Positions 2,598-20,421 of a stretch of DNA of 60,540 nt are shown here, in pieces (within the stretch, counting starts at the first letter, position 1; every line of letters begins with the position of its first letter). The translations under genes were made by a program, and so were the position numbers. Below the pieces are notes generated by a model. The model made no database searches, was not told the DNA's origin, and saw only the letters and a list, made by a program, of their open reading frames with translations. The DNA comes from an uncultured Anaerolineaceae bacterium (GTDB lineage: Bacteria; Chloroflexota; Anaerolineae; Anaerolineales; Anaerolineaceae), in the NCBI GenBank assembly GCA_964584065.1, contig CAZOYK010000001.1, forward strand, positions 1 through 60,540, in the 5' to 3' direction.

Positions 2598-3479
2598 CTA
2601 CCCCAATTCCCGGTAAGTGGGTGCGCTTGGGGCAAAAATTTCGCGCTGAACGGTCTCGAGCAAAGTTTCGCCTTTCAGATCTTCAACTGTATAACAAACC
2701 GCTTCCATCTTGTCTGCCAGGTCCTGCGCCAGGCCACTATCGAAGACTTTCTGCTCCATGTTGATCACCACGCTGTGGATCTTTTCGTTGGCAAACATGC
2801 CAGCCAGTTCCGCGATTTCTTCCGCCACTGGTCGCCCGGGGGCAAGTGGCACATTCCCCGCGCCATCCGTCAGAACGATCAGCAGTGGTTGCACGTCCGG
2901 GTGCAGGATCTTTTCGCGCTTGATGACTTCGTAGGCCATCTGCAGCCCTGCTGAGAGCGGCGTCTTGCCGCCAACCGGAATGTTTTCAAGCGCGCGCTGA
3001 GCCAGCAATACCGAGTTGGTTGGCGCGAGCACCAGCGTGGCGCGGTCCTTCTGGAAAACGACCAATCCCACGCGATCGCGGCGCTGGTAGGCGTCCGTCA
3101 CCAGGGATAAAATCGCCCCCTTGGTAGCCTGCATGCGCTCCGAGACCGCCATCGACCACGAGCCATCCACAAGGAACAGGATCAGATTGGCGGTCTTCCT
3201 GACCCGAACTTTTTTCTGAAAATCTGCTGATCGCACCGCAAATGCCACGTCACGTTCGGCACGCAAGCTTTCACGCTGGCTCTGGAACGGTGCGGCTGCG
3301 CGGATGGTGGCGTCGAACGCCACATCGGAGGTGTCATCAGGCGCGGCTTGCGCCTGGATGTAGCGTCCACGCTTGGTTTTTGATCGGGTTTGGGAGCGTC
3401 TGCCGCCCTGCTTGCGGACCATTTCGTCCAGGGGAGTGTCCAGTTGGCGCGGCTCAAAAGTTTCGCCAGGCTTCACCAC
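2598..3479 (-). CDS. von Willebrand factor A domain protein (ChlD/BchD C-terminal-half-like)
   Basis: MIDAS motif DxSxS in LILFLVDGSWSM, basic N-terminal linker, and VWA-length C-terminus. Lies directly downstream of a ChlI-like ATPase. Confidence 0.8.
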   Translation of the reverse strand: MVKPGETFEPRQLDTPLDEMVRKQGGRRSQTRSKTKRGRYIQAQAAPDDTSDVAFDATIRAAAPFQSQRESLRAERDVAFAVRSADFQKKVRVRKTANLILFLVDGSWSMAVSERMQATKGAILSLVTDAYQRRDRVGLVVFQKDRATLVLAPTNSVLLAQRALENIPVGGKTPLSAGLQMAYEVIKREKILHPDVQPLLIVLTDGAGNVPLAPGRPVAEEIAELAGMFANEKIHSVVINMEQKVFDSGLAQDLADKMEAVCYTVEDLKGETLLETVQREIFAPSAPTYRELG

Positions 3480-3574
3480 CTTGCCGCCCTCCCACCATTG
3501 GGCGTTTATCTCAGTGAAGATCTGCTGCTGCCCCTCCCCAACAACGGGGAGCTCATCGTCGTCTCCCTTGTTGT

Positions 3575-4705
3575 CTAAGGAGTCGGGTTCCGGGGGTCCG
3601 TCAGTTTTTTTTTAGATTCTTCGGCTGTGTCGGGTTTTTCTTCCTCTTCGCCGCCGACGATCGTGGTTTGCATTTTCAAGTCAGCCAGCTTCGCCTCAAG
3701 CGCCTGCACCCCAACTGCACTCTTGCGGAACGGACCTGCCTTAACTCTGTGCGGCAGTGCCAGCTCAGCAGCCATGGCAATATCCCGCGGCGTGATGCGC
3801 GTGCGCCCTTCGAAGGCAGCTTGGGCTCGGGCAGCTTTGAGGATCACCAGGTCCGACCGATGCCCGTCCACTTCCATCTCGGAGGTCAGGTCGGCAATGA
3901 TCAGCAGGTCGCGCTGGGTGTAGCGCACCTCATCCACCAATTCGCGCGCCATCTCAATTTGCTCTGAGAGTTCCAGCTCCTTTGGCAGCCAGACCTCGCG
4001 AAAAGCCTCCGGATCAGCCTCAAAAGCGATATTGCGGCGCATGATCTCCACACGCTGGGCCTTATCCAGGATGCCGCGGATCTCAACCGAAAACGCAAAC
4101 CGATCCAAAAGCTGGGGACGCAGGTCGCCCTCCTCAGGGTTCATCGTGCCAACCAGAATGAAACGCGCTGGATGGCTGAAGGAGATGCCTTCCCGTTCCA
4201 CCATGTTCACGCCCATTGCCGCCGAGTCGAGCAGGATATCCACCACGTGATCATCCAGCAGGTTGACTTCGTCGATGTAGAGCAGACCGCGGTTGGCGGC
4301 TGCCAGCACACCGGGCTCAAAATGGCGCTCTCCTTTTTGAATAGCCCGTTCGATGTCGAGCGTGCCAACCACGCGGTCTTCAGTGGCTGAAACTGGCAGG
4401 TTGATGAAAGGCGTTTCGCGGATTTCCGTAGGCATCGGATCCTCACCCGCCACAAAGCGCTCACGGCATTCCGTGCACCAGGTGGTGGGCTTGGCAGGGT
4501 CACAACCAAAGCGGCAGTCGCTGACTACCCGCATAGGCGGCAACAAAGCCGCCAGGGCTCTCGCCGCGGTGGACTTGGCCGTGCCGCGTTCGCCGCGAAT
4601 CAGCACGCCTCCAATGCGGGGATCGACGGCGTTCAGGATCAGCGAGCGGAGCATCCGCTCCTGGCCGACTACTGCTGTGAAGGGAAAGATTACGCGTTCG
4701 TTCAT
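3575..4705 (-). CDS. ChlI/BchI-type AAA+ ATPase (Mg-chelatase subunit I family) with Cys-rich insert
   Basis: FPFTAVVGQERM, Walker A GERGTAKST, Walker B YIDEVNLLDDH. Insert CRFGCDPAKPTTWCTEC. Start set to ATG 4705 (AGGAG 6 nt upstream, TATAAT at 4727-4732) instead of ORF-track 4741, which lies inside that -10 region. Confidence 0.85.
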   Translation of the reverse strand: MNERVIFPFTAVVGQERMLRSLILNAVDPRIGGVLIRGERGTAKSTAARALAALLPPMRVVSDCRFGCDPAKPTTWCTECRERFVAGEDPMPTEIRETPFINLPVSATEDRVVGTLDIERAIQKGERHFEPGVLAAANRGLLYIDEVNLLDDHVVDILLDSAAMGVNMVEREGISFSHPARFILVGTMNPEEGDLRPQLLDRFAFSVEIRGILDKAQRVEIMRRNIAFEADPEAFREVWLPKELELSEQIEMARELVDEVRYTQRDLLIIADLTSEMEVDGHRSDLVILKAARAQAAFEGRTRITPRDIAMAAELALPHRVKAGPFRKSAVGVQALEAKLADLKMQTTIVGGEEEEKPDTAEESKKKLTDPRNPTP

Positions 4706-4914
4706 ATGTGTCTCCTGCAAGCATGGATTATAGCACGCCACACCTCAATCGCGGTGTTTGTGTCAAATTCAGGAGAGACGATCTGGTTTTCCCATAAAAC
4801 CTTCATTCAGGACAGAAAAGAGTCAAATTGGCTCCCTTTTCGGCCTTTTTGAGAGTTCCTGATAGTTTAATTTGGCTAAACTGAAACCCGTAAGCTTAAC
4901 TTAAGGAGTCAAAC

Positions 4915-5316
4915 ATGGAAGTTCCACGCCACTGGCGTTTGAAGAAACAACGATACGCACTGCAGGGCGAAGTCTGCCCCCACTGCGATGCCAAGATTTT
5001 TCCACCCCGCGATGTCTGCCCTGAATGCGGCGGCGAAGCCAAAACACCCTTCACCTTCAGCGGTCAGGGTGAGGTTTATTCCTTCACCAGCTACAGCAAC
5101 GCTCCTGCTGGCTTTGAAGAACAAGCTCCCTACACCATTGCCATGGTCAAATTGAATGAGGGTCCGGTTGTGACCGCCCAACTGACCGATCTCGGCGCTG
5201 AGCCCGTGCGCATCGGCATGCCGGTTGAGATGGTCACGCGCAAGATCCGCAACGACAGCTCCGACCGCGGCATGATCGTCTATGGCTACAAATTCCGCCC
5301 GGTGATGCAGGGATAG
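4915..5316 (+). CDS. DUF35-type Zn-ribbon / OB-fold protein (intact copy; target of repeated insertions)
   Basis: 133 aa with AAGGAG RBS at 4903. CPHC..CPEC rubredoxin-like ribbon followed by an OB-fold-length C-terminus. Confidence 0.8.
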
Positions 5317-5340
5317 TCCCTCTATTGAAGCAAATCCAAA

Positions 5341-5369
5341 CCGCCTTCCAAGTCTGGAGGGCGGTTTTT
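5341..5369 (+). terminator. Rho-independent terminator of the DUF35 gene
   Basis: CCGCCTTCCA agtc TGGAGGGCGG forms a 10-bp stem (one G-U) with a 4-nt loop, followed by TTTTT. Confidence 0.85.
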
Positions 5370-5509
5370 GTATTGTTCGTGCCACCTTTGGTCTTGGTCA
5401 AGCGGAATTTACGCAAATACAGCTATCCCCCCATCACATTAGAAAAAGCGACCCGGACTAAGTTGGAGCAGGCGGAAGGAATTGCGAAAGATTGGGCGGA
5501 ATGAGGTAT

Positions 5510-6352
5510 TTACCCTGTTTCCACGTAATTCTTTGCATATTCCAAGAAATTTTCCTTGAACCCTTCCAGCCAGGCTTCGATGAAAGACCGCTGTTCGAAT
5601 AAAGGTAGCAAATCTTCTGCAAGGTCTGATAACCTCATTTCAGCAATCTTTTCGCCCAGTAATTCAATCGCGGAGTGAACCGTATAAGGTTGGTGACCAT
5701 CCTTAGCCAGCTTTTGCTCCAATGGTCTGATTTTCTGCTGCATGAACCATAATAAATCATAAAAATCGCGGCCTTTGATCGCAACCCCTTCACCCTTCTG
5801 AAAATTGCGCTCCAGGCAGGCCAGCATCTTCCCGGCCATCATCGTTTCCAGCGAAAAATGCGCCGCCACAAAACTTCTGCCAAAAAGTAGCACCGGCGTT
5901 TTGCGTATGATAGAAATTTGCTTGTGCTGGCTGACCTCCACTTTTAGGTGCAGCGGTTCGTTGGCATGCGAGGTCAACCCCAAAGTATAGAGGATCGGAA
6001 ACTTCAAGGTAGTTCGCCGGACGCCCCACTCCCCAATCTGGGTTTTGGCGGTCATATCGTCATATCCGATATTGGAACGGTAGAAAATCAGCAGATCATT
6101 TTCGAGATTGCTCAAATCAATCCCATTGCTGTTATCCAGGTCAATATCTTCCGAAAGACGGTTCAGGCCGTAGATCACATGCAAACAGGTGCCACCATAA
6201 AAATTGAGCTTGCGGTAGACCGGGTGATTGTAGAGAAAATCAAGGGTATACGCCTGTAGAAATTCCTTAAGGATCACCCGCTTGGTTTCATTGGGCAGCA
6301 AAGGGTCTTTTTGTGACAGAACGTTTTGCATCAATTGAATTAATGTCGCCAT
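5510..6352 (-). CDS. abiEii: AbiEii/AbiGii-family nucleotidyltransferase toxin (type IV TA / abortive infection)
   Basis: 280 aa. FYGGTCLHVIYGLNRLSEDIDLD matches the GGTAL..R.SEDIDF core of the DUF1814/AbiEii fold. Overlaps the upstream antitoxin gene by 13 nt. Confidence 0.8.
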   Translation of the reverse strand: MATLIQLMQNVLSQKDPLLPNETKRVILKEFLQAYTLDFLYNHPVYRKLNFYGGTCLHVIYGLNRLSEDIDLDNSNGIDLSNLENDLLIFYRSNIGYDDMTAKTQIGEWGVRRTTLKFPILYTLGLTSHANEPLHLKVEVSQHKQISIIRKTPVLLFGRSFVAAHFSLETMMAGKMLACLERNFQKGEGVAIKGRDFYDLLWFMQQKIRPLEQKLAKDGHQPYTVHSAIELLGEKIAEMRLSDLAEDLLPLFEQRSFIEAWLEGFKENFLEYAKNYVETG

Positions 6353-6996
6353 ACGGTTTTCCTCAGGTTTTTCAATATCTGCTCCATCTTTTTGCTGTTG
6401 CTGATCTCCACGAAGGTTTCAAATTCAACCTGGTCACTTTCTGAGAAATCCTCAAGGTTAAGACGCAGATCTTCTGCCAGGTTATTGCCAGCCAAACGTC
6501 GACTGCCCTTCCAGGGGCGTAAATAGAGAAAATCAAAAAGTGCCTTTGCCAACGTTGCCTGGGATATTGGAATACCCATGTATTCGGAAAACAGAAAACC
6601 CTGATAGAGTTCCGCTTTGATATTGCGGTATGTAAAAGTCCCCAGTTTGTTTTCGAAAACACGGGTCTGTTTGATCGTGACCGCAGTAACCGGGTACGTA
6701 ATTTCGGTGAGAATTGCGCTTCGCTGCAGTATATATTCCAGGGATAGATAGGACTGGGGGATCAAAATCGCGCTGACCATGGGTGCAAAATCGGCGTCCG
6801 CGCGGTGCAGTTCGAAAAAACGTCGTGTCATGTAGACGCCTCTTTTAAGCTGGATAATTTGTTCAGCTTTCATCCAGCGGTAGAGCGCAGTTTGGATCGT
6901 GCCGGTCGCAACAGATTCATCACCAAGAAGCTGTTTTACCGCTTCAATAGTGAAGTATGGAAAAGATTCAAGAGAGGAAATGATTTTTGTTTTCAT
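6340..6996 (-). CDS. abiEi: AbiEi-family antitoxin / transcriptional autoregulator
   Basis: 218 aa. N-terminal wHTH with the characteristic ...ALYRWMKAEQIIQLKRGVYM motif. Has the operon position and size of AbiEi_4 antitoxins. Confidence 0.75.
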   Translation of the reverse strand: MKTKIISSLESFPYFTIEAVKQLLGDESVATGTIQTALYRWMKAEQIIQLKRGVYMTRRFFELHRADADFAPMVSAILIPQSYLSLEYILQRSAILTEITYPVTAVTIKQTRVFENKLGTFTYRNIKAELYQGFLFSEYMGIPISQATLAKALFDFLYLRPWKGSRRLAGNNLAEDLRLNLEDFSESDQVEFETFVEISNSKKMEQILKNLRKTVWRH

Positions 6997-7031
6997 ATAG
7001 GATAATTGACGCTTTGCGTCTATTATCCTAT
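6997..7031 (-). promoter_or_regulatory. 16-bp inverted repeat (candidate AbiEi operator) abutting the abiEi start codon
   Basis: ATAGGATAATTGACGC ttt GCGTCTATTATCCTAT has one mismatch between arms. It overlaps a GATAAT/TATATA -10-like stretch. Confidence 0.55.
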
Positions 7032-7196
7032 ATATAAGTCAATTATGCAAGTGGGAAAAAATTGTTAAATACATTGCCCCACATCTGGATGCTGTACCGC
7101 TCCGTTTCGAACACCCAGAGGTGTCTATGTTATTGCTTGCCGGAAATTCCGTTTTCGGATAATGGAATTGCAAGGAATTAACTGGATGTGATTGGA

Positions 7197-7512
7197 TCCA
7201 CCCCGCGATGTCTGCCCTGAATGCGGTGGCGAAGCTAAAACACCCTTCACCTTCAGCGGTCAGGGTCAGGTCTGGTCCTTCACCAGCCACAGCAATGCTC
7301 CTGCTGGCTTTGAAGAGCAAGCTCCCTACACCATTGCCATGGTCAAATTGAATGAGGATCCGGTTGTGACCGCCCAACTGACCGATCTCGGCGCTGAGCC
7401 CGTGCGCATCGGCATGCCGGTTGAGATGGTCACGCGCAAGATCCGCAACGACAGCTCCGACCGCGGCATGATCGTCTATGGCTACAAATTCCGCCCGGTG
7501 ATGCAGGGATAG
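7197..7512 (+). pseudogene. Ghost copy 2: 3' fragment of the DUF35 gene (codons ~30-133), lacking the first CxxC and native start
   Basis: Aligns base-for-base with 5001-5316 (about 10 mismatches by eye, clustered in the first ~170 nt). Homology starts abruptly at TCCACCCCGCGATG. Confidence 0.85.
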
Positions 7513-7536
7513 TCCCTCTATTGAAGCAAATCCAAA

Positions 7537-7565
7537 CCGCCTTCCAAGTCTGGAGGGCAGTTTTT
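7537..7565 (+). terminator. Duplicated DUF35 terminator (copy 2)
   Basis: Same hairpin as 5341-5369 with one change (GGGCAG), followed by TTTTT. Confidence 0.75.
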
Positions 7566-7980
7566 GGTTTGGTAAATCTGAAGGTTCCCTTTACCTGATA
7601 AATAAACATCGAGCTGCCATGGGTATCACTAATGCCCGTTTTGAGTCACCAGGTTCATATGTTTATCGATGGTTATTCTAAGATAAAACTGCACTAACTG
7701 GTTTGATGGGCATTGAATTTTGGATTCTTTTTTCGTATACTGTTAATTAATTATCCGGCTTTTTTGCTCATAAAGATAGTAGCCATTTATCAACACCTAA
7801 GAACTATCACGCACTCATTAAACATTATGCCAGCCTAATCGAATAATTTTCAATGCGATAAGTGGTCGTTGCGCTTGATCACTATCGTTTGGAATCATTA
7901 TTTTGGCTCAATGCGCATTGCTTGATTCATGGCATGCGCTTGACTACCTGTTTATCACCTCTTGAAAGGAGCGTCCAAAA

Positions 7981-10467
7981 ATGATAAAGAAAACATTTCT
8001 GATAATTGTGTTGTTGAGTTTGCTGCTTGTAGCGCCTGGCAAGCCGGTAGTAAGTCAAACCGCTACAGCCGGAGAGAATGATCCTTTGCGTACAATTGAC
8101 CTAAGTCACTTTGAACAACAGGCAGCCGCTTCTAGCGCTGTCACGCCTGCGCCGGCTGTGGATGAAGCCTTAGGGCTGCCGCCTGAGCAAGCCCAACCCA
8201 TGTTGGAAAGCGATCCGCTATCTTTTGAAATTAACTCGGGTAGGTTTGTGTATGATGATTTTAACCGCATAGATGGTGCCATAGGTGCGGGCTGGACGGT
8301 GCATAATGGTTATTGTAATATTGCCAGTAATTCAGCTGTGTGTGGTGGAGTATCTTTACCGGGTCGGGCTACCTTCAACGGTGTATCTACCGATGGTAAC
8401 ATGGCAGAAATGGATGTGGCAGTCTCAGGCACAAGCCTGCAGTATGCTGGGCTGCTGCTGAACTATGGTGCGGGCGTCAACAATCTTTTTATTAAAGTGC
8501 AGCAACAAGCTCCTTTCGAAGGAAAATTCACCCACGCCGCCTGTTACACTGGTAGCGGTGGAATCGGTTTTGGTTTGAATTTCTTTGAACTCACATCCCC
8601 TTTTATGAGCGCTCATATGAGCGCCAGGCGTGTGGGAGATACGGTTACGCTCGTTTTCTCCAACGTGGATGGGAGCACACAGCCCACGCAAACCTATACC
8701 TGCACCGGGGCACCTCCACCGGAAGGTAGCGGCATAGGCATTCTGGGTTATAACGCTATTGCCCGGATGGATAATTTTGGCGTCTCAAATAAACACATTC
8801 TTTTGGTGGATGATGATTGGGATTTTGATGAGACAGTGCCAAATGATGGTGGACGTCCTTACTACACCACTGCCCTGGATATATTGGGGTACTCTTACGC
8901 AGTTTGGGATACGGTCACCCAGGGTTCTCCCACGACAGCAGACATGCTTCCTTATGATGCCGTCATCTGGTTCACCGGTTATGCCTGGGAGGAGACAGTC
9001 TTACCCAGTGACGAGTTAGCTCTTGCTGGGTATCTTGAAGCTGGCGGTGTGCTAATCCTTTCTTCGCTGGATTATATTTATTCAGCTGGCACCGTTACAC
9101 CCTTCATGAGAGACTATCTGGGGATTTCCTCATATGATGAAGATGTTACTGAATTAGATCCCGTAGGTACTCCTGACAGTCCGATTGGAGTCGAGTTGGG
9201 ACCATATACCTTGGTGCGCCCGGATACCTGGGCGGCTTATTGGCCAGGAGTCGGCTATGAAGGACCTTACACCGATTACGTTTACCCCACACCCGAAAAT
9301 TCAGCGCCTTTCAAATTTTGGACCTCAGGTGTGACCAACAGCAGTGCTTTTGACGGAGGACACTTCCGCACAGTCTTCCTCGCCTGGCCCTTTGAATGGG
9401 TAGGTTTTGTCCTGGATCGGGCTGAGATTCTCGGCAGTATGCTTGAATGGGGACATTGGGTTGCCAAATCAGACGCCTGCTTTGATCTGACTCGTTTTGA
9501 TGCTGAATATTTCCCACGCACAGGCTTGGTATACGTTTTAGGTGGGCGTTCAGGAATTGATACGGATGGAAATATTTATGCCTATAACCCATCGACGGGT
9601 GCTTGCATAGACACGGGGGCTGATATGCCCATCCCAATCTCAAATTTCACGACCAATTTGATCAATGACGGCAGCAAAGATTTGCTGTGTACCTTTGGTG
9701 GACGTGAAGCAGGGGGTTCTAACACTCTCGCTGTCCAATGTTACGATCCCCTTGCTAACACTGCCTCTGTGGTGGCAAATTTACCAGCCGCTTACACTGG
9801 CTATGTGCCTGGGGCTCAGGTTGTTTACAACAACCGCGTTTATATTTTCGGTGGATTCAACTCCTATGCAGCCCCGTATGATCTCGCCCGCACTGACCGT
9901 TACAATCCTATAACCAAATCCTTTACCCAGCTCGGCAACCTTAGCCTGGCACGCAGCTATATTTATGCGGCAGAAGTAGCTGGCAAGATCTATGCTTTTG
10001 GCGGTACGATCAGTGATCCAGGAGGTTTGTTGGCACAAACGCGAGCGGAAGTGATGGCAGATCCTGAAGGTGCAGGCACCTGGAATGATGCTGCCGTACC
10101 GGACTTGCCTTCACCGATGGGCGAAGGTCGGGCATTTGGCTTTGATTCAGCAGACGGTATCGACAGGCTGACTGATAAGATCGTTTTTGTTGGCGGCGGC
10201 GATTGGCCGAATGAAACCGGTGATGGTTGGACGTATGATACCCTGACCCACACTTACGATGTGAGTTTTCCCGATTTGCAGGAGTTCAGACGCGACCATG
10301 CGGGTGTCTATGTCCCCCTCGATTCTTCCAACCAGGCTGACGGACTGCCAGGTTTATGGGTAATTGGCGGTCATAGTGGATCTGACGCTCCGCCTTATGC
10401 TGGAGTGGAGTACTTCCCACTCAACTACAACTTCCTCTATGCCTTTCTCCCGTTAGTCCTGAAGTAG
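7981..10467 (+). CDS. Secreted multidomain protein: signal peptide, lectin/LamG-like domain, flavodoxin-like spacer domain, six-bladed Kelch-type propeller
   Basis: GAAAGGAG RBS. N-terminal MIKKTFLIIVLLSLLLVAPG signal peptide. Six spaced x-GG blades (VYVLGGRSG, CTFGGREAG, VYIFGGFNS, IYAFGGTIS, IVFVGGGDW, LWVIGGHSG). Confidence 0.65.
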   Translation: MIKKTFLIIVLLSLLLVAPGKPVVSQTATAGENDPLRTIDLSHFEQQAAASSAVTPAPAVDEALGLPPEQAQPMLESDPLSFEINSGRFVYDDFNRIDGAIGAGWTVHNGYCNIASNSAVCGGVSLPGRATFNGVSTDGNMAEMDVAVSGTSLQYAGLLLNYGAGVNNLFIKVQQQAPFEGKFTHAACYTGSGGIGFGLNFFELTSPFMSAHMSARRVGDTVTLVFSNVDGSTQPTQTYTCTGAPPPEGSGIGILGYNAIARMDNFGVSNKHILLVDDDWDFDETVPNDGGRPYYTTALDILGYSYAVWDTVTQGSPTTADMLPYDAVIWFTGYAWEETVLPSDELALAGYLEAGGVLILSSLDYIYSAGTVTPFMRDYLGISSYDEDVTELDPVGTPDSPIGVELGPYTLVRPDTWAAYWPGVGYEGPYTDYVYPTPENSAPFKFWTSGVTNSSAFDGGHFRTVFLAWPFEWVGFVLDRAEILGSMLEWGHWVAKSDACFDLTRFDAEYFPRTGLVYVLGGRSGIDTDGNIYAYNPSTGACIDTGADMPIPISNFTTNLINDGSKDLLCTFGGREAGGSNTLAVQCYDPLANTASVVANLPAAYTGYVPGAQVVYNNRVYIFGGFNSYAAPYDLARTDRYNPITKSFTQLGNLSLARSYIYAAEVAGKIYAFGGTISDPGGLLAQTRAEVMADPEGAGTWNDAAVPDLPSPMGEGRAFGFDSADGIDRLTDKIVFVGGGDWPNETGDGWTYDTLTHTYDVSFPDLQEFRRDHAGVYVPLDSSNQADGLPGLWVIGGHSGSDAPPYAGVEYFPLNYNFLYAFLPLVLK

Positions 10468-10486
10468 GACAGTTGGCTGTGATTTA

Positions 10487-10549
10487 CCTCTCCCTTCAAA
10501 AGACACCAGGACGGAATCTGTTTGGTAAAAAAGGGAGAGGTTTTCTTTT
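10487..10549 (+). terminator. Long-stem terminator after the Kelch protein gene
   Basis: CCTCTCCCTT (10487-10496) pairs with AAGGGAGAGG (10531-10540) over a partly self-pairing loop, followed by TTTTCTTTT. Confidence 0.55.
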
Positions 10550-10863
10550 AACCATTGCTAACTCATCATGATTTCCTGACCATATTCCTCGCAAGATCGT
10601 CAATCTGAGAGACAAATTGAAGTCATGTTCCTATCACATTCAAGTTTTATCGGAACACATCTCCTTTTTCCTGTTTGATGATCATACAGTTGAGGCCACG
10701 ATGGTTAACTATTTTTGCCATTTGATGGCATTAGAACTCGTCCAACAAATTCTGATATCAACCAGGGTCTTCTATATCAAACAGGGGGGGTGGATTCAAC
10801 AATTCACGAAATAAACGAATTGAAAATCACCTTATTCCTATGGAGTAGCAATCTGAGCACAAA

Positions 10864-10926
10864 GACAGCTCCGACCACGGCATGATCGTCTATGGCTATA
10901 AATTCCGCCCGGTGATGCAGGGTTAA
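10864..10926 (+). pseudogene. Ghost copy 3: last ~20 codons of the DUF35 gene with its own TAA stop
   Basis: GACAGCTCCGACCACGGCATGATCGTCTATGGCTATAAATTCCGCCCGGTGATGCAGGG differs at 3 positions from 5243-5312. A diverged terminator (GTGCCTTCCA..TGGAGGGTAC TTTT) follows at 10947-10973. Confidence 0.75.
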
Positions 10927-11354
10927 ACGAACACTTGATAACCAGAGTGCCTTCCATTTTGGAGGGTACTTTTGATTCACGCAGTATTTGTTTCTCAGTA
11001 ATTTCATTATGGGGGAAGTGCTGCTTCACGCTAAAACAGGAACAAGTGACCCGCTTGTAAGGTGCTTTGCCAATCTTGGGACGCCAAGATTCTCTCTTGG
11101 AGCGCGAGGACATCGCCAAAACATTCTTTCTGCGCATCCCAGCTGGTTAGGATGTCTTTGTCGGAGGTGATCAGCGGCTTCCCGGAAGACCTTTCTCAAC
11201 GCGACTGGACACCCGTGGGGAGAGGCGCATTAAAAATTGTGGGTTTTGGCAGTCTGAATTCACTGGCAGTTATTTGACTTTGACAAAAGCTGCTTGGCCT
11301 TAATCGCTTATTATGATTGCATTATTCCAAATCAATCCAAAAAGAGGTCTTCCT

Positions 11355-11555
11355 ATGAAACGCAATATGTCCAATCTTGACCGCATTATCCGTGCCATCA
11401 TCGCCGTCCTGTTTGCCTATCTTTATTTTGGTGGAGTCGTCACAGGCACGTTTGGCATTATCCTGGTGGTGCTCGGCGCAATCCTGCTGATAACATCCGT
11501 CCTTGGCTTCTGCCCGCTATATGTACTCCTTAAAATGAGTACCTTGAAGGACTAA
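11355..11555 (+). CDS. DUF2892 (YgaP-like) small membrane protein
   Basis: Start moved to ATG 11355 (AAGAGG RBS). N-terminal NLDRIIRAIIAV and C-terminal GFCPLY motifs flank two TM helices, as in DUF2892. Confidence 0.65.
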   Translation: MKRNMSNLDRIIRAIIAVLFAYLYFGGVVTGTFGIILVVLGAILLITSVLGFCPLYVLLKMSTLKD

Positions 11556-11768
11556 ACCTGGCATTTCTACAGGGAGGATGAGTAATCATTCGCTTTTGAT
11601 TTTTTAAACCTATTGGCTTACAGATAAAGTTGTTGCATATTTCCGTGTTCGCTGGCTCGAACAACGGCTTGTTTGAAACGTCAATGTAAGGAACCCGGAA
11701 AATATTCAAAGCATCCTAAAAGATATATGGCTTGCCAAAAAATTGTTGTGAATTAGGGAATCACAAAA

Positions 11769-11907
11769 CCAGCTGACCGAACTTGCCGCTGAGCCTGAGC
11801 GCATCGGCATGCCGGTGGAGATGGTCACGCGCAAAATCCGCAACTATGGCTCCGACCGCGGCATGATCGTCTATGGCTACAAGTTCCGCCCGGTAATGCA
11901 GGGATAG
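11769..11907 (+). pseudogene. Ghost copy 4: last ~45 codons of the DUF35 gene
   Basis: Aligns with 5178-5316 at roughly 90% identity by eye. Keeps the TAG stop and the 3' UTR. Confidence 0.8.
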
Positions 11908-11931
11908 TCCCTCTATTGAAGCAAATCCAAA

Positions 11932-11961
11932 CCGCCTTCCAAGTCTGGAGGGCGGTTTTTT
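11932..11961 (+). terminator. Duplicated DUF35 terminator (copy 4)
   Basis: Identical stem-loop CCGCCTTCCA agtc TGGAGGGCGG followed by TTTTTT. Confidence 0.8.
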
Positions 11962-12213
11962 GTTTTGGGGCGTATAATTTTTCTTGTTACATACATGAGT
12001 AGAAAAACATTAAGAGACAATAGTTAGATTAAGAAAGAAAAATGATAGTTGACACGAATTTCAATTTTTACTCCGACTCAAAGGGTCGTGATCCTGACAG
12101 CGCCAGTCCAACTCTCAATAAATACCATAGAATAGCCGGAAAAGGCCCTCTGACATTAAAAAAGAAGGTTTCCGCGCCACCTTGCTGCCATTGCTGACAT
12201 TACATTCGGCGGA

Positions 12214-12603
12214 TTGCTGGCGCTTGGGATTTGCTATTTGCTCTTCTTACTGACCAATCATCTCGCGAGATACCTGGTTGCTTTCATCAACCTCTCCTCC
12301 ATGCCGCCCTTCATCGTTCGCAGAGTTTTTGCTTTGGTGCTTATGGCTCTATATTTGGTTGTGCTTCGCGCCAAACTCTCTGATCTCGCCAAATCCACCC
12401 TCCTTGTCGGTCCAATGGGGATCCTTTTTTCGACCGCGATGATCACCCTCTATCAAACGCCAGCGTGGGCGATCGCGGTCACAGTTGTTATCACAGCTGT
12501 CAGCATCTTTCTGCTACACAGAAGTATGAAGCCCTGGTTTTATTATTATGCTATCGCGATCGCCTTGCTTGTTTCCATTGCCTTAGCCTGGCCGCGGGCT
12601 TGA
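12214..12603 (+). CDS. Hypothetical 4-TM membrane protein
   Basis: 129-aa ORF that is strongly hydrophobic throughout. Has a TTG start and no recognisable family. Confidence 0.35.
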   Translation: MLALGICYLLFLLTNHLARYLVAFINLSSMPPFIVRRVFALVLMALYLVVLRAKLSDLAKSTLLVGPMGILFSTAMITLYQTPAWAIAVTVVITAVSIFLLHRSMKPWFYYYAIAIALLVSIALAWPRA

Positions 12604-12803
12604 GAGATCAGGTTGTCGCTCCACAAAAAAAGAATAGGGAGGATATGTGTAATGACTTCAAGTTTCTACCGCGAATGAAGTTTGGGTATAATTTCGGGGA
12701 AATCCATGCTTTCTGGTGTGACAGTCACATTGCCTGTTTTTGAAGCATGTTTTTCATCACGATTCATTGGATTGAATGATATATTAAATGGTGAGATTTT
12801 TCT

Positions 12804-13757
12804 TTGCGTGAGGCTGATTTGCAAAAGTATTTTAAAGAATATCAATGGTCCAACATCAATGCCATGCTGCGCAACCTTAAGTCAAGCCCGGAAATCTGCA
12901 CGGACGATTTTAATGACCAATTGGTCATAATTACCGGGGCGACCTCAGGCATTGGTTATGCGGCCGCAAAAAAATACGCCTCTCACGGCGCTGAACTGCT
13001 CTGCATCAATCGGAATGAACAAAAGTCAAAAGAGACGTGTGATGCGATTCAAAGCCAGTATGGCACCAGTTGCACCTATTGGATTGCGGATCTCTCACGG
13101 CTTGCTGAAGTCCATTCCGTGGGAAAGAAACTGGCCGCACTTGAGAGGGACATTGACGTGCTGATCCACAACGCGGGTGTCTATAACACAAAGAAGATCA
13201 TCACAGCGGATAACCTGGAAGCAAGCTTCCAAACGAACTACCTGAGCACATTCATTTTGAATCATTACCTCAAGGAAAAATTCATCAAGCAGAAAAGCGG
13301 ACGCATCCTGTTCGTCAACTCTGAAGCCCACCGGTTCGCCGCCTGGGGTCTGCACCTGGATGATCTTACCTGGGAAAAGCACGCCTATTCGGGGCTGAAA
13401 GCTTACGGCGCCGCGAAGTTGGCGCAGTTACTCTCGATGATCAAGCTCAACGAGGCATTCCTTGGGTCAGGGGCAACGGTAAACGCTATGCACCCGGGCA
13501 ACGTCAAGACGAACAGCGGGCAAAACAACGGTCCCATCTACAAGTTTTTCAAGCGGATCTTTATTGATCGCTCAGCGCAGTCTGCCAACATTGCCGCTGA
13601 AGCGCTCTATTTTTTGGGCGTTTCCAAAAGCCTGGAGAAGGTTTCGGGTAAATTTTTCAATCTCACAACCGAAGAAGAGCCAGCTCCCCCGGCGTGGGAT
13701 AAGGATGCCGCCGAAGAACTTTGGACACTCAGCTGCAAGTTAGGTGGAGTGAAATGA
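12804..13757 (+). CDS. Short-chain dehydrogenase/reductase (retinol-dehydrogenase-like classical SDR)
   Basis: ITGATSGIGYAAA, IHNAGV and the catalytic YGAAK. The TTG start at 12804 is uncertain; ATG 12864 is an alternative. Confidence 0.8.
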   Translation: MREADLQKYFKEYQWSNINAMLRNLKSSPEICTDDFNDQLVIITGATSGIGYAAAKKYASHGAELLCINRNEQKSKETCDAIQSQYGTSCTYWIADLSRLAEVHSVGKKLAALERDIDVLIHNAGVYNTKKIITADNLEASFQTNYLSTFILNHYLKEKFIKQKSGRILFVNSEAHRFAAWGLHLDDLTWEKHAYSGLKAYGAAKLAQLLSMIKLNEAFLGSGATVNAMHPGNVKTNSGQNNGPIYKFFKRIFIDRSAQSANIAAEALYFLGVSKSLEKVSGKFFNLTTEEEPAPPAWDKDAAEELWTLSCKLGGVK

Positions 13758-15373
13758 CAGAAGAAAAATCAAAAGTCGTGATTGTTGGAGCAGGTATGGC
13801 AGGGCTCACAGCCGCCGCTTATCTCTTGAGGGAAAACTATGACGTTTTGATCCTGGATAAGAATGATAAGTGCGGCGGCTTGCTGCGGACCTTCCAGTCA
13901 AACGGGTTTTCCTTCGATTCAGGTCCGCGGGCTTTTGTAAATTCCGGCATCATGAAACCGATCCTGAAAGACCTGAAGATCGATTGGGAGGTCCTCGAAA
14001 ACAAAATCTCGATCGGTGTTGAAGACCATATCGTTCGATTCAATTCAATCGATTCTTTACAAGAATATAAAAAGATGCTAATCAGCCTCTACCCTGAGAG
14101 CGTCGATGATATCGAAAAGATCATCCCAATTCTCTATCGACTATCGGAATATACCAAGGTTTTGTACGAATTTGATAATCCCAACCTCACCACCAACCTG
14201 ATGGCCGATAAAAAATTCCTGATCAAAAAATTACTTCCCTGGACCTTCAAGTTCCTCAACGCGCTCAGGCAGTTCAACAAATTCAAGATGCCCATGGAAG
14301 TTTTCATGGCGCGCCTGACCAAAAATCAATCTTTAGCCGACATCATTCTCCAGCACTTCTTCAGGAAGACTCCCACCTATTTCGCCTTGGGTTATTTTCA
14401 TGTTTACATGGACTATTTCTACCCCAAGGGTGGCACAGCCGCGGTGGTTGATCTGCTGAAAAACAGAATATTGGAAAAGGGTGGCGAAATCAGGCTGAAC
14501 ACCCAGATTGTCTCGGTCAACCCATCCGAAAAGACGGTGACCGACTCGTCAGGCGAAAGTTATGCTTACGATGACCTGATCTGGGCGGCAGACCTCAAAA
14601 CCCTCTATCGCAATCTCAATCCTGAGGGGTTGGATGCGGAAATCACCGCGAACGTGAAAGCAGAAACCGAGCGCATTCTGGCGGCAAGAGGCGCTGAATC
14701 CGTCTTTATTTACTTCCTTGCGGCAGATCGCCCAATGTCCTACTTCCAGTCCAGAGGTGGGGAGCACATGTTCTATACCCCCTCCAGGCAAGGTTTGGGC
14801 CAAACCACCCGCCTCGAAAGAGAAGCCCTCGTCAGGGACTTTAACGCAAAATCCAAGGCTGAGGTATTCGCCTGGCTGGAACAATACTGCGATCTAAATA
14901 CCTATGAAGTCTCCATCCCTGCCCTGCGCGACGCCACCATGGCGCCGGAAGGCAAAACCGGCCTGATGATCAGCTGCCTGCTGGACTACGACGTGGTTGA
15001 GAAGATTGAGCAAGCCGGCTGGTATGACGAATTCAAAGAAACCCTCGAGAAGCGTATCCTCAGCAATTTCTCTGAAACCGTCTACCCGGGCTTAGCTGAG
15101 GATATCCTTTTCAAGTTCTCTTCAACACCGCTGACGATCAAACAGGTGGCCGGGAGTTCGGAAGGGGCCATAACCGGCTGGTCATTTGAGTCGGATGTGC
15201 CGGTCGTCAACAAATTAACGAACCTTCCAAAATCCGTTCTGACACCGATCCCCGGGATTCTCCAGGCAGGGCAGTGGGCGTATTCCCCCGCGGGCGTGCC
15301 CATCGCGATGATGACGGGCTGGTATGCGACACAAAAGATTTTAAAAGACGCAAAGAAATCCCGGGGTAAATAA
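13754..15373 (+). CDS. FAD-dependent oxidoreductase, phytoene-desaturase/RetSat-like family
   Basis: VVIVGAGMAGLTAAAYL...LDKNDKCGG dinucleotide motif with CrtI-like length. Start set to ATG 13754 (GGTGGAG RBS, ATGA overlap with the SDR stop). Confidence 0.8.
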   Translation: MTEEKSKVVIVGAGMAGLTAAAYLLRENYDVLILDKNDKCGGLLRTFQSNGFSFDSGPRAFVNSGIMKPILKDLKIDWEVLENKISIGVEDHIVRFNSIDSLQEYKKMLISLYPESVDDIEKIIPILYRLSEYTKVLYEFDNPNLTTNLMADKKFLIKKLLPWTFKFLNALRQFNKFKMPMEVFMARLTKNQSLADIILQHFFRKTPTYFALGYFHVYMDYFYPKGGTAAVVDLLKNRILEKGGEIRLNTQIVSVNPSEKTVTDSSGESYAYDDLIWAADLKTLYRNLNPEGLDAEITANVKAETERILAARGAESVFIYFLAADRPMSYFQSRGGEHMFYTPSRQGLGQTTRLEREALVRDFNAKSKAEVFAWLEQYCDLNTYEVSIPALRDATMAPEGKTGLMISCLLDYDVVEKIEQAGWYDEFKETLEKRILSNFSETVYPGLAEDILFKFSSTPLTIKQVAGSSEGAITGWSFESDVPVVNKLTNLPKSVLTPIPGILQAGQWAYSPAGVPIAMMTGWYATQKILKDAKKSRGK

Positions 15374-15472
15374 CCGGGGATCTACATAGAATAAGGATCT
15401 TGTAACCACTGCCAAACCGTAAATGCAGGATGCCCAACCCAACAATGGGGCAAACAGGAGCTTGATATAAGC

Positions 15473-15988
15473 GTGAACGCATTAACGATAGTGACGATTG
15501 GCTTTCTGATGATGGAGGCTTCGAATGTCATCATGCTCTATTTTTTCCCGGACTCAAGATATGCCAACAGCGTGGGTGTGTTCAAAGCCTGGGAAAAATC
15601 AAAACAAGACCCCGAACTGCATAATTTTGTGAAATACCTGGTCAACTGGGTTGCAGGCACCAAGTTAATCGTCATCCTGCTGTTGATCGTGATCCTTCTA
15701 ACCGCGCGCGAACATACCCTGATCTTTACCGGCGCTGCAATGGTCCTCTCGATCGCCTCGTTCTTTTGGCGTCTCTTCCCGCTCATTCGAGCAATGGATC
15801 GAAATGACCAGATCGAACCCAAAAATTACTCCACCACCTTAGGGTGGATGATATGTGGTTTTTTTCATGGTATTCCTCGCGGCGGTGATCATCACAATCC
15901 TAACTTCAAAATAAGCGGTCTAATTCCGGCTTTAAAGAACCGACATGCTGATTGTCATTTCGCAAATTATCAGTACGGAATAAAATAA
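15473..15988 (+). CDS. Hypothetical multi-TM membrane protein, probably frameshifted at a T7 run (15859-15865)
   Basis: Hydrophobic up to residue ~128, then a non-membrane tail. Removing one T gives ...GWMICGFFMVFLAAVIITILTSK with a stop at 15912-15914. Confidence 0.45.
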   Translation: MNALTIVTIGFLMMEASNVIMLYFFPDSRYANSVGVFKAWEKSKQDPELHNFVKYLVNWVAGTKLIVILLLIVILLTAREHTLIFTGAAMVLSIASFFWRLFPLIRAMDRNDQIEPKNYSTTLGWMICGFFHGIPRGGDHHNPNFKISGLIPALKNRHADCHFANYQYGIK

Positions 15989-16067
15989 AAGAGTCAGTCG
16001 GCAGTCCTAAAAAAGATGCGTTCTTTTTTCATAAAGAATGGCAAGACAGTATCAGGAATAAAGCTTC

Positions 16068-16913
16068 ATGAAATTGATCGACATCATCCATCGCCAGCCC
16101 AACCCTCAACCCTGGTTTGAAGGGGAGAAAATTCCCTGGAATGACCCGACCTTCAGCAAACGGATGCTGAATGAACATCTATCCCAGGCGCACGATGCCG
16201 CCAGCCGCCGCTCAGAAACCATCGACGCGCAGGTGGATTGGATCCACCAGGCTGTGCTCAAAGGGCTCCCTTCGCGCATCCTCGACCTGGGATGTGGACC
16301 CGGGCTCTACACTGCCCGCTTAGCTGGCTTGGGTCACACTTGCACAGGCATTGACTTTTCGCCTGCCTCCATTGCCTATGCCAAAGAGCAGGCCATTGCC
16401 CGTAATTTGCGCTGCCAGTATTTCGAGGCAGACATTCGATCAGCTGAGTATGGCAGTGGATATGACCTTGTTATGTCCATTTTTGGAGAATTCAACGTGT
16501 TCCGACCAGAAGACGCGAGAGTAATCCTGCAGAAATCATTCGCTGCTTTGAAGGCGGGTGGTTACCTTTTGCTTGAACCCCACACCTTCGAGAAAGTGCG
16601 GGAATTGGGTAATCAGTCACGTTCCTGGCATGCTGCGGAAAGTGGTTTGTTTGGGGATGAACCATACCTGTACTTACAGGAGAATATCTGGGCTGAAGAA
16701 GCCAGGGTGGCGATCCAACGTTATTACATCTTGGATGTCAATTCCGCTGAAGTGACATTCCATTCATCCAGTATGCAAGCTTATACCGACCAAGAATATC
16801 GCTCCCTGCTGGTTGATTGTGGATTTGTTGAAGCAACAATTCTGGGCTCGATCAGCGGCAGTGGCAATAGTTTCGCCGGGCTGCTTGGAATTCTCGCTCG
16901 AAAGCCGGCTTGA
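16068..16913 (+). CDS. Class I SAM-dependent methyltransferase
   Basis: Motif I ILDLGCGPGLYTARLAG and post-I acidic DF. 281 aa. Confidence 0.8.
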   Translation: MKLIDIIHRQPNPQPWFEGEKIPWNDPTFSKRMLNEHLSQAHDAASRRSETIDAQVDWIHQAVLKGLPSRILDLGCGPGLYTARLAGLGHTCTGIDFSPASIAYAKEQAIARNLRCQYFEADIRSAEYGSGYDLVMSIFGEFNVFRPEDARVILQKSFAALKAGGYLLLEPHTFEKVRELGNQSRSWHAAESGLFGDEPYLYLQENIWAEEARVAIQRYYILDVNSAEVTFHSSSMQAYTDQEYRSLLVDCGFVEATILGSISGSGNSFAGLLGILARKPA

Positions 16914-16988
16914 GGGTTTGATTAGACCCACTGAGTGGTTCTTTCTACTGGTGTCTGTTGTCATCTTGTCTTTTATGAATGATTAATC

Positions 16989-17027
16989 AAAAAACCGGAG
17001 AGCACAATCAGTGCCATCCGGTTTTTT
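16989..17027. terminator. Bidirectional terminator between convergent genes
   Basis: AAAAAA CCGGAGAGCAC aatca GTGCCATCCGG TTTTTT. The A-run and T-run flank an 11-bp stem with a 2x2 internal mismatch. Confidence 0.75.
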
Positions 17028-17068
17028 AAGTCTGACTTTCTTAACCTATTGCGAATGATTCCCAGGCT

Positions 17069-18559
17069 TCATGGGGTGATCAATGGTTCGAAACGGATGA
17101 AATCATAGTAAGCATCAAACTCATCGTCCTTATACCGAGAACTCCCCCCGCCTGCACTCAAAAAGAGTTTATCACCAGCTGCGTACCCTTCGGTTTTTCC
17201 CAGGTAGATCCAATCGACGCCATTTTCTGAATAATAAAAGGTGTATTTCAAACCTGCCATATCAAGCCGCAAGTAAACCGGACCTGAAAAACGGATTTGA
17301 TCAGAAAAAATTGCCTCATAATAGTAATCATAAGGGCAACTATCATCAAAACAAGCCCAGGCATACACAGAACGACCGCTATCGCTTTCAAGGGTTATTC
17401 CTAATTTAATCGTATAACCATTCGTTTCATAGGAGTTAGGCGTAAGACCCATGCCTACATTCTGGCCTTCACGGTACATATCGCCGTCTACACGTGTGAT
17501 GATGGAGATGTTTGTGTGAGTCAGTGGATAGATGAAGATATTCTTTGGGATGTAATTTTCGTCATCAAATTCCTGGTAACGTCCGGAAATGTGCAGCCAG
17601 CCCGGTTTATCGGTGAGGTCCCAGCGGGTGGGGTCTGCACGCTCAACGCGCATATTCAGAGGAAGACCCGCTGATTCTTCAAATTGTGTACTTAATTCTT
17701 CCAGGATCGGTCTCAACGCCATCGATGTTGCCTGTATGGCTTCCTGCTGTCTCTGCTCTTCAAGCGCAGTCTGGGTTGCCTGGGTAATTGCCTGTTGTGT
17801 GCTTGTGTAAGCTGTTTGGGTAGCACTCTCCGCCATTTGTGTGCTCTGCTGTTGAAGTTCCAGCGCTTCATTGGTTGCCTGCTGCATGTATTGGAGGGCT
17901 TGTTGTGTCTTTAGTTGCATACTTTCGTAGGCTTCTTGCGTCTTCTGCTGCATGTACTGATACGCTTCGTTTGTCTCAGATACTGCAACTTCAGTCCCTT
18001 CCCGGTTTAATTCTTCTGCCCTGGCGGTTTCAGTTGGATTAGGAAGAATTTCGTTTGTGTCGAGGACGTAAGTAAGGATGAGGTTCTGACCTGGTTCAAG
18101 GTCTTTTATGCCGTACGAGCGTCGATATTGATCGATTTTGCCGCTCGAAAGGCTTTCGATTGATAAAAAGTAGAGTTGGGTATCTTTTCCCCATATTTCA
18201 ACAGGCACAGAGGACTCATTCCGCCAGCCCTCATTAATGAGCTGTTCTTCCAAATCAGAGTATATTGCTGCATACTCTTCATCACTCATTCTCAAGTCCA
18301 GGCTGTTCTTATAAAGGGTAAACTCGTATCCAAAATTGTCCACCACCAACCTTTCTACGTCAGACGGACTGATTGGAATAACTGTTGCCTTTTTATGCAC
18401 TGGGAAATCACTTAGTTTGGGTGCAACTTGTGTTACGGGGGTTGATGTAGGGGCACATGCATGGGCCATTAGAACGATAATGAGAATACACGAAAATATC
18501 ATGAAAACCGATTTCTTATTCACAACTCCTCCTCTATTTAAAGAAAAACCGTTAATCAT
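17069..18559 (-). CDS. Secreted hypothetical protein with Gln-rich hendecad repeats and a C-terminal beta-sandwich (ConA-like) region
   Basis: Signal-like MIFSCILIIVLMAHACA. Seven 11-residue repeats (EAYQYMQQKTQ / EAYESMQLKTQ / ...) at aa ~198-277. AT-richer than its flanks. Confidence 0.55.
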   Translation of the reverse strand: MINGFSLNRGGVVNKKSVFMIFSCILIIVLMAHACAPTSTPVTQVAPKLSDFPVHKKATVIPISPSDVERLVVDNFGYEFTLYKNSLDLRMSDEEYAAIYSDLEEQLINEGWRNESSVPVEIWGKDTQLYFLSIESLSSGKIDQYRRSYGIKDLEPGQNLILTYVLDTNEILPNPTETARAEELNREGTEVAVSETNEAYQYMQQKTQEAYESMQLKTQQALQYMQQATNEALELQQQSTQMAESATQTAYTSTQQAITQATQTALEEQRQQEAIQATSMALRPILEELSTQFEESAGLPLNMRVERADPTRWDLTDKPGWLHISGRYQEFDDENYIPKNIFIYPLTHTNISIITRVDGDMYREGQNVGMGLTPNSYETNGYTIKLGITLESDSGRSVYAWACFDDSCPYDYYYEAIFSDQIRFSGPVYLRLDMAGLKYTFYYSENGVDWIYLGKTEGYAAGDKLFLSAGGGSSRYKDDEFDAYYDFIRFEPLITP

Positions 18560-18755
18560 TTAATTAATACCATAGATTGGTTCTTTGAACTATAAAAAGA
18601 TCTCAATCGTAAGAGAGACTGCTCAAGTCGCCCTAATAGAAGACGCGTTAATACAAGGCCTTTTTGCGTTATTGAAGGATATAATTGACCATGACATTCT
18701 GCATTCCTGCAAATTTGTGTGAATTTACGCTCTATGAACCCTATGTGAGGTAAGT

Positions 18756-19454: not shown

Positions 19455-19562
19455 AATCTGATTTGGCGGTTGATGCTGCTGGTGTGTTTGCGCATTAATT
19501 CTTAACGCTCTGATATCATTGCCCTGTACGTAATAAACCTCATAATTAGAAAGGGAAATACT

Positions 19563-20036: not shown

Positions 20037-20126
20037 TGCCACTTTGGAGCAAAACTATTGAAAAAACGGGGGTTGTAAATGGTTGTATAATCCAACTATC
20101 ATTCGTTCAAATGAAAAAGGAGAATC

Positions 20127-20408: not shown

Positions 20409-20421
20409 CTGCAAGATAAAG

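Follow-up and report, generated by a model that had tools for sequence, protein, structure and literature searches.

Elements such as phage 21 and e14 at icd, the islands at tRNA and tmRNA genes and the tycheposons use a dedicated integrase, a fixed crossover core and a replacement gene end, and integrons are found behind ilvD in Xanthomonas. Sedentary chromosomal integrons and clusters of attC sites without an integrase (CALINs) have been described (Cury et al. 2016, 10.1101/030866), and both integrons in Chloroflexi and arrays lacking the integrase gene intI are known (10.1101/030866). C-terminal displacement and orphan arrays are known from Rhs, contact-dependent inhibition (CDI) and type VI secretion system (T6SS) loci (Jackson 2009, Poole 2011, Koskiniemi 2014, cited in Kirchberger 2017, PMC5361080). 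Here, we analyzed a 60,540-nt stretch (the window) of the forward strand of contig CAZOYK010000001.1 (GCA_964584065.1) from an uncultured Anaerolineaceae bacterium, in which an intact DUF35 gene is followed by three truncated, co-oriented copies of its 3' end and terminator (ghosts) with unrelated cargo between them. The structure combines two known kinds, an orphan 3'-end array and a decayed chromosomal integron hotspot, and recombinase-free accretion at such a hotspot is the explanation that we favor, with about even confidence.

Like the Rhs, CDI and T6SS orphan arrays, the DUF35 array is recombinase-free and consists of co-oriented 3' fragments that lie downstream of one intact gene and start inside conserved coding sequence. 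At those loci too, a conserved upstream part anchors homology, homology-facilitated illegitimate recombination has been proposed, and the repeats recombine and thereby reshuffle modules. What varies at those loci is the toxin tip of the gene itself together with the cognate immunity gene, whereas the DUF35 end is restored nearly unchanged; further differences are that DUF35 is a small housekeeping-type gene, that the cargo is accessory and unrelated, that the repeat spans a conserved terminator and that the site coincides with an integron. With sedentary integrons and CALINs the locus shares a fixed place by a conserved gene across a clade, an intI that is often decayed or lost, and cargo that in part looks like their cassettes, which are small, AT-richer and for the most part co-oriented (GNAT, methyltransferase, toxin-antitoxin and DUF types), but the repeats in the window are pieces of the neighboring gene with a simple terminator and not attC. 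As with elements at icd and tRNA genes, the gene is kept intact, the insert is bordered by a shortened second copy of the gene end and accretion occurs in tandem at one site; unlike with those elements, the cargo scanned here contained no integrase other than the intI of relatives, and the breakpoints are scattered. Xer modules (IMEX/pdif) have 28-bp dif-like flanks, which the window repeats of coding sequence and terminator do not resemble.

Copies of the DUF35 gene end in the window

The original prediction, made from the sequence, was of an intact gene with a terminator, followed by three further copies of its 3' part in the same orientation. It was borne out when the 60.5-kb window was searched for repeats and patterns and the copies were aligned. 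Exactly four copies of the DUF35 end (the intact gene and ghosts 2 to 4) are present, all on the plus strand, with a degenerate shorter copy (g0) in addition, and shuffling gave 0 matches in 100 shuffles. Positions within the gene are numbered from the first base of the start codon (q1); L numbers denote related loci and contigs, P numbers related proteins.

4915-5316, plus strand: intact DUF35/ChsH2-type gene, 133 aa, zinc ribbon and OB fold (PF01796, 9.7e-20; PF12172, 2e-07)
5338-5369, plus strand: DUF35 terminator hairpin CCGCCTTCCA-AGTC-TGGAGGGCGG and T-run (-22.9 kcal/mol, z -5.7)
7143-7195, plus strand: g0, degenerate older short ghost, last ~10 codons and start of the tail (aligned to the L094 ghost and gene ends)
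7197-7566, plus strand: ghost 2, q87-456, codon 30 to terminator, 11 mismatches in 370 nt
10860-10973, plus strand: ghost 3, q336-401 aligned at 10860-10925 with 4 mismatches, 94% identical
11769-11960, plus strand: ghost 4, q264-455, 13 mismatches
5338-5367, 7539-7558 and 11929-11958: conserved hairpin motif
11973-11978, plus strand: TATAAT box, read directly from the sequence

Homology between gene and ghosts begins abruptly within the coding sequence and stops a few bases past the T-run, as had been proposed, and in the window it does not reach beyond the breakpoints on their upstream side, as it would for remnants of full-length paralogues. The mismatches of ghost 2 were counted as predicted, ten of the 11 falling at or before q248, while the estimate of ~14 for ghost 4 was one too high. 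Ghost 3 has a TAA stop of its own, and its hairpin, at about 10947-10968, is diverged but stable. All three ghosts match their own gene best, with an identity of 97, 94 and 93% by rising distance from it. They belong to the long "class B" ghosts, and no motif recurs among their starts (q87, q264 and q336) or connects these with the class B ghosts found at other loci.

DUF35 is a single-copy conserved gene of the Anaerolineaceae (Chloroflexota), and its terminator marks the right-hand end of all repeats. The terminator is a plain stem of 10-13 bp; all four hairpins, behind the gene and the three ghosts, are more stable than shuffled sequence (z -4.2 to -5.7) and were called terminator-like. The hairpin sequence, CCTTCCA-N3-5-TGGAGGG with a conserved T.G wobble, is kept across genera (tails in L004-L172). 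Across 2.04 Mb of related loci, every occurrence of the motif is behind a DUF35 gene or a ghost (46 sites), 24 further matches being those same hairpins read from the opposite strand. A TATAAT box follows 10-25 nt past many gene and ghost tails (L009, L026, L039, L068, L094 and others) and is possibly a promoter for the first downstream cassette; a sigma-70-type promoter scan that required both hexamers did not flag it. The DUF35 residues after the conserved ...YKFRPV vary widely between species (MQG, MAK, MGA, MAGPR, LAGPG, GLGPH; for example at 5296-5316 of the window and in proteins P0017, P0028 and P0030), which fits frequent replacement of the extreme gene end.

The segments between the copies form cassettes of 0.8-3.3 kb. 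Their content had been read as an AbiE pair, a Kelch protein and a DUF2892 peptide, the last of which corresponds to YgaP-like_TM, and Pfam agreed in each case, with AbiEi below its cut-off; the cargo is also AT-richer as claimed (42-50% G+C, compared to 56-60% for the DUF35 gene and core).

5510-6352, minus strand: AbiEii toxin, gene-proximal cassette (PF08843, 3.2e-19)
6340-6996, minus strand: AbiEi antitoxin (PF13338, 22.1 bits, just under the cut-off of 25)
7981-10467, plus strand: 828-aa Kelch-repeat protein with a hydrophobic, signal-like N-terminus (Pfam Kelch families)
11313-11555, plus strand: 80-aa YgaP-like transmembrane protein (YgaP-like_TM; PF11127, 6.3e-20)
12042-12197, plus strand: truncated DUF6994 gene, breakpoint 12109/12134
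12214-21600, no strand: AT-richer flexible region, continued (from composition, Pfam and tblastn against the loci; right border approximate)

The AbiEii nucleotidyltransferase adjoins the AbiEi regulator, as in AbiE type IV toxin-antitoxin systems, and the two genes overlap. The DUF6994 gene has lost ~700 nt relative to L084 (99.3% identical), where a 204-aa gene is intact (PF22507, 7.1e-77). When the cargo genes were compared to the related loci by tblastn, several were found behind DUF35 in other genera: DUF6994 in L015, orf129 in L008, a YgaP-like homologue 1 kb downstream of the gene in L049, an amine oxidase pair in L027 and a PEMT-like gene in L034. The AT-richer stretch from 5.4 to 21.6 kb thus draws on a gene pool that is tied to this locus.

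The cassettes had been reported to encode no integrase or transposase, and the same holds for the ~55 ORFs annotated between 0.9 and 60.5 kb of the window, among which neither a recombinase or transposase family nor a Phage_integrase match was found. The integron integrase of L030 (described below) gave no tblastn match in the window. With filters off, a covariance model of eight Anaerolineaceae attC sites reached only E = 0.58 for its best window match; this model is narrow, and very divergent attC sites could escape it. A box-and-fold scan for R'' and R' boxes found no attC in 5300-12000 and only scattered matches inside ORFs (a fuzzy pattern search for attC ends was too noisy and was not used), and the end-of-array module GTTAGATTGACACTCTCAC had no match in the window. 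Rfam gave no match in 4700-12300 at E up to 1, and no tRNA or tmRNA gene was found in the window. Both a complete integron and a CALIN were therefore rejected as descriptions of the window itself, the former for want of intI and the latter for want of a recognizable attC. Tn7-like homing was likewise rejected, as the window ORFs include no transposase family and the duplications measure 66-370 nt and are not short target duplications.

A family-wide hotspot and its integron

DUF35 relatives numbered 569 in a species-representative genome collection and 560 in metagenome contigs, with samples mostly from wastewater, digesters and sediments. The best 160 of these relatives (71-98% amino-acid identity) were used for the comparison of loci, in which each locus was aligned to itself and at least 2 kb of downstream sequence was available in 110. 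One to four ghosts of the locus's own gene end were present in 38 of the 160 loci. All of them were found on the strand of the gene and within the downstream flanks (0.94 Mb in total), none in the upstream flanks (0.99 Mb), and the sole minus-strand matches were the palindromic terminators. The 3' side of DUF35 is a family-wide polar hotspot for gene insertion, in agreement with the recurrent insertion hotspot that had been proposed from the window alone. Cargo differs between species, and the array is not one identical structure inherited by all related genomes.

Across the loci, ghost starts are scattered between q87 and q376, without a junction motif common to the long ghosts, whereas homology stops at the T-run in about 20 gene/ghost pairs. 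Some ghosts of L015, L045 and L094 are foreign-like, fitting other gene ends better than the resident one. In two different MAGs (metagenome-assembled genomes), ghost tails beside a GntR/ABC operon (L045 11091-11260 and L030 8556-8660) are ~90% alike, including non-coding sequence, which would reflect either displacement long ago of an end that kept its native flank or horizontal transfer of the unit.

A pool of 82 ORFs located between gene and ghosts in 23 loci was scanned against Pfam, and the 25 commonest families were considered, single-member families falling outside this set. The pool comprises GNAT proteins, methyltransferases, MerB, APH-type kinases, ABC transporters, DUF4256, AI-2E transporters and helix-turn-helix (HTH) regulators, and looks like typical integron-cassette content. 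In the window, the toxin-antitoxin pair, the small membrane protein and DUF6994 resemble cassettes too. Less cassette-like are the 2.5-kb Kelch gene in the window and the 5-9-kb inserts in L047 and L048; that of L047 (8.6 kb, ghost 94%) carries a two-component system, a ferritin, a CBS protein and two AI-2E transporters. The only integrase found was intI: neither the 25 commonest families of the pool nor ten large cargo ORFs scanned singly included another, and the large cargos of L047, L048 (from the isolate Leptolinea tardivitalis YMTK-2, with a ghost of almost full length), L067 (ghost 96%) and L006 contained no recombinase. The inserts of L047, L048 and L067 look recent.

The presence of an integron at the same site in relatives is an addition to the original prediction.

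L030 3641-8657: integron of a Brevefilum MAG, tail-to-tail with DUF35
L047 13088-14489: intI remnant, behind a ghost
L063 10489-10587: intI remnant, position as in L030
L026 5538-5622 and 6394-6466, L035 11265-11318 and 12943-13001: ~80-nt post-attC module with diverged last DUF35 codons
L072 5336-5389, L034 14369-14457, L082 (3 copies): ~80-nt post-attC module, further loci

In L030, intI lies directly past the DUF35 terminator in convergent orientation; it scores 398.8 bits with TIGR02249 (cut-off 265) and also matches Phage_int_SAM_4 and Phage_integrase, with its N-terminal part frameshifted. It is followed by a putative attI (..TCCGTATAATTAATAG/TTAGCCCGC), four attC cassettes and then a DUF35-end ghost with its own terminator; an attI-like stretch is conserved in L047. 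The attC-type sites are imperfect hairpins of ~130 nt (R'' GCCCAAC ... R' GTTGGGC), and the covariance model built from eight of them found further sites besides these, exclusively on the plus strand and downstream of DUF35. In total, the loci with matches number 12 of 80 from genomes and 11 of 81 from metagenomes.

In at least ten loci, the attC R' box GTTAGAT is followed by a module TGACACTCTCAC-N9-GCGGACCAAGTCGGATGTACGGGTAT/AAGTTCCGCCC that ends in the last ~30-60 nt of DUF35. These "class A" ghosts could be the old flank of attI, with the integron platform having settled inside a duplicated gene end. Some arrays contain the module more than once, and there it could also be part of bona fide mobile cassettes. 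The best reading of these observations is that the hotspot began as a chromosomal integron and that the lineage of the window has lost intI and any recognizable attC. An integron at the same site makes the integron integrase the relevant candidate for action in trans, yet the window is without attC.

Possible origins of the array

Mosaicism within the ghosts bears on how they were formed. In ghost 2, q258-456 is of the resident type (1 mismatch), whereas q87-257 is 94.2% identical to the resident gene and as distant from it as the gene of another species (L006). All six differences in q157-207 (including E to Q and Y to W) are shared with the full-length and evidently functional alleles P0017/L173 and P0028, and only 4-5 changes are private to ghost 2, which indicates that this part came from another functional allele and not from decay. 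Over its coding part, ghost 4 has 90.6% identity to the gene, a divergence of the order seen between species, and its tail is identical to the resident from q391 on; orthologous tails differ by ~20% between these species. The identical 3' parts of the ghosts point to gene conversion or crossovers among the copies. The patch in ghost 2, the divergence of ghost 4 and some ghosts of L015, L045 and L094 speak for a foreign-allele origin of ghosts; against it, 34 of 54 ghosts across the loci match the resident gene best.

A single junction, between g0 and ghost 2, could be reconstructed. g0 is homologous to the well-kept short ghost of L094 (2529-2606, q376-456), a locus with ~88% identity to the window that comprises the gene, AbiE, the same intergenic DNA, this short ghost with terminator and TATAAT box, and a weak attC match. 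The tail of g0 reaches the first arm of its own terminator and is there joined to q87 of ghost 2 at a microhomology of CC[A/G]CC; the joint is illegitimate and not site-specific. Exchange next to the gene is also recorded in the conspecific contigs L001 and L002, which match the window at 98-100% identity, apart from a patch of 74-90% (3901/4301-4900) that covers the 5' half of the upstream ChlI-like gene and the intergenic region between it and DUF35, ending ~15 bp before the DUF35 start codon. Homologous exchange that breaks beside DUF35 is therefore still taking place.

From these observations we infer the recombination pathway and the order and direction of events as follows. The conserved gene end and the locus-specific terminator would act as portable homology: incoming DNA from relatives, composed of a DUF35 end, the terminator and other downstream genes, would pair with the resident copy on one side by a RecA-type reaction, while the other side would be joined illegitimately at a few bases of microhomology (homology-facilitated illegitimate recombination). 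Each such event would leave a truncated, co-oriented gene end beside the cargo, starting anywhere in the coding sequence, and later gene conversion or crossovers between copies would homogenize the 3' parts and shuffle, delete or add cassettes. The right end would be fixed at the terminator because the conserved sequence stops and variable DNA starts there. The same mechanism has been proposed for orphaned 3'-end arrays at T6SS and Rhs loci (PMC5361080), and the underlying process, with one homologous anchor and one microhomology joint by which foreign DNA is added next to a conserved gene, has been described experimentally (de Vries & Wackernagel 2002, Prudhomme 2002, Meier & Wackernagel 2003, cited in PMC5361080). 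The original prediction had left three options for the array, namely decay, mobilization in trans and homologous recombination on the shared ends, of which the last fits best.

If accretion of this kind is correct, a short conserved gene end with its terminator suffices as a family-wide landing pad without a dedicated recombinase, C-terminal displacement is not confined to polymorphic-toxin loci but also affects an ordinary small gene whose cargo is unrelated, and a chromosomal integron and recombinase-free accretion share one site. The locus would then suit questions on integron decay, cassette sharing between genera and possibly the entry of non-cassette genes into arrays.

The order of events is less clear than serial insertion with newer inserts next to the gene, as originally proposed, would have it. 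Serial accretion stands, but the simple order does not. The AbiE block is collinear and 89-93% identical in three other species (L005, L006/L093 and L094), and is thus kept like the core ChlI and VWA genes, which makes the linkage of gene and AbiE the oldest in the clade. A "newest next to gene" order holds only if "gene end - AbiE - g0" was re-imported from a relative into a genome with "gene - Kelch ..." and its right end joined at q87, which could have happened; the reverse, in which "q87 ... Kelch ..." was appended to g0, yields the same structure. Outright refutation of the serial order by the old AbiE block was considered and softened, as the g0/ghost 2 junction and the mosaic identity of L001 and L002 allow re-import.

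Several points weigh against recombinase-free accretion. The oldest linkage adjoins the gene, and the direction of the last event is ambiguous. Measured frequencies of homology-facilitated illegitimate recombination are low (PMC5361080), and it is known as an infrequent outcome of laboratory crosses; here it would recur often at one locus throughout a family, with three to four events in one array and at least one in a quarter of the loci. Natural transformation or another form of DNA uptake in these bacteria has to be assumed. The constant end at the T-run and a locus-specific hairpin whose sequence is kept across genera would also fit a site-specific reaction. Differences between gene and ghosts fall at third codon positions in 18 of 27 cases, which could partly reflect mutation bias at G+C-rich third positions; this excess was downgraded as proof of foreign origin, as only 5-8 of the 11 changes specific to ghost 4 could be polarized (P about 0.01-0.09). 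Finally, a search for an empty site or for different cargo at the same gene succeeded in its second part, in other species, but at strain level yielded neither an empty site nor a donor/recipient pair, and conspecific contigs have the same array. A metagenome scan returned other species and no conspecific strain with a different array, and exact-protein look-up gave no match for the 80-aa cargo protein and one contig of only 1.5 kb for an SDR protein.

Site-specific insertion of cassettes in trans is an unlikely alternative, in which the gene end and hairpin would serve as an attI-like or secondary site for the family's IntI or for another tyrosine recombinase encoded elsewhere. The integrase and attC arrays of relatives are located exactly at this locus, at least ten loci show the ghost module immediately behind the R' box of their final attC, with more than one copy of it in some arrays, and the constancy of both the T-run end and the hairpin would be accounted for. 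The gene end TACAAG/TTCCGCC also loosely resembles the putative attI core TAG/TTAGCCC of L030 and L047. Against this, the window contains neither an attC nor an integrase, its ghosts start at three positions without a G/TT-type or other common junction, the plain stem of the hairpin has no R/L-box architecture as in attC, and the one reconstructed junction is a microhomology join. A more specific version, in which the DUF35 end and hairpin form a genuine site for the Anaerolineaceae IntI and ghost-bounded units are a second kind of mobile cassette beside attC cassettes, is something of a long shot. If true, the post-attC ghost module would record how the integron platform entered the gene end, and the locus would be a natural system for studying platform settling and the recruitment of chromosomal genes into arrays.

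Replication template switching is similarly improbable. A fork would stall at the terminator, switch to ectopic DNA and return inside the gene, without any incoming homologous DNA, and the ghosts would afterwards decay and be partly re-converted. This explains the fixed right end, the variable left ends, the co-orientation, the predominance of resident-like ghosts (34 of 54), the microhomology at the g0/ghost 2 junction and the drop in identity with distance, which is similar in L006, L027, L055 and L072. It does not account for the patch of another functional allele in ghost 2, for a ghost 4 coding part that has diverged like the gene of another species, mainly by third-position changes, or for foreign-like ghosts such as that of L015 and the tails shared by L045 and L030.

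Classical integrative elements of the phage 21/e14-at-icd or tRNA-island type, bringing a replacement end and an integrase that was later deleted, are very unlikely, and this part of the original prediction was not upheld. The anatomy of intact gene, cargo and truncated co-oriented gene-end copy suits them, as do the variable extreme C-termini of DUF35, which look as if often replaced. However, the cargo scans (ten large ORFs, the 25 commonest pooled families, L047 and L067) revealed no integrase apart from intI, the cassettes are just 0.8-3.3 kb, the ghost starts have no common core and the ghosts are mostly resident-like. An assembly artefact, in which strain variants were chained via the shared repeat, would fit the many public contigs that break at or just after DUF35, but has a negligible probability, since the array and its ghost-cargo junctions recur at 99.3-99.9% identity on L084 from ENA and on seven contigs from Logan (these seven from different runs), eight independent assemblies that differ in sample and assembler, the exact 828-aa Kelch protein occurs in the same context on 8 independent contigs, and the copies differ in length and sequence.

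Surroundings of the array and practical aspects

Many public contigs stop at or just after DUF35, as expected if a repeat and strain-variable DNA begin there. In practice, short-read assemblies of these bacteria, which are abundant in wastewater and digesters, are interrupted by the repeat precisely at DUF35, and the locus is a ready marker for gene-content variation at strain level.

Upstream of DUF35 and divergent from it, the minus strand at 2598-4741 encodes a ChlI/BchI-like AAA+ ATPase and a VWA protein, which jointly correspond, though with scores below the cut-off, to both halves of TIGR02442, a putative cobaltochelatase. This neighborhood is common to the closest species only. A single ORF on the minus strand at 26146-27567 combines an N-terminal GIY-YIG nuclease domain with a galactokinase/GHMP kinase, and a direct repeat of ~180 nt (70% identity) links 37-215 with 28737-28920. 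The right part of the window (31500-60462) holds a large co-oriented cluster of core-like G+C content for polysaccharide and nonulosonic-acid biosynthesis, which includes two NeuB genes, three CMP-sugar cytidylyltransferases, Wzm/Wzt ABC exporter components, epimerases and glycosyltransferases.

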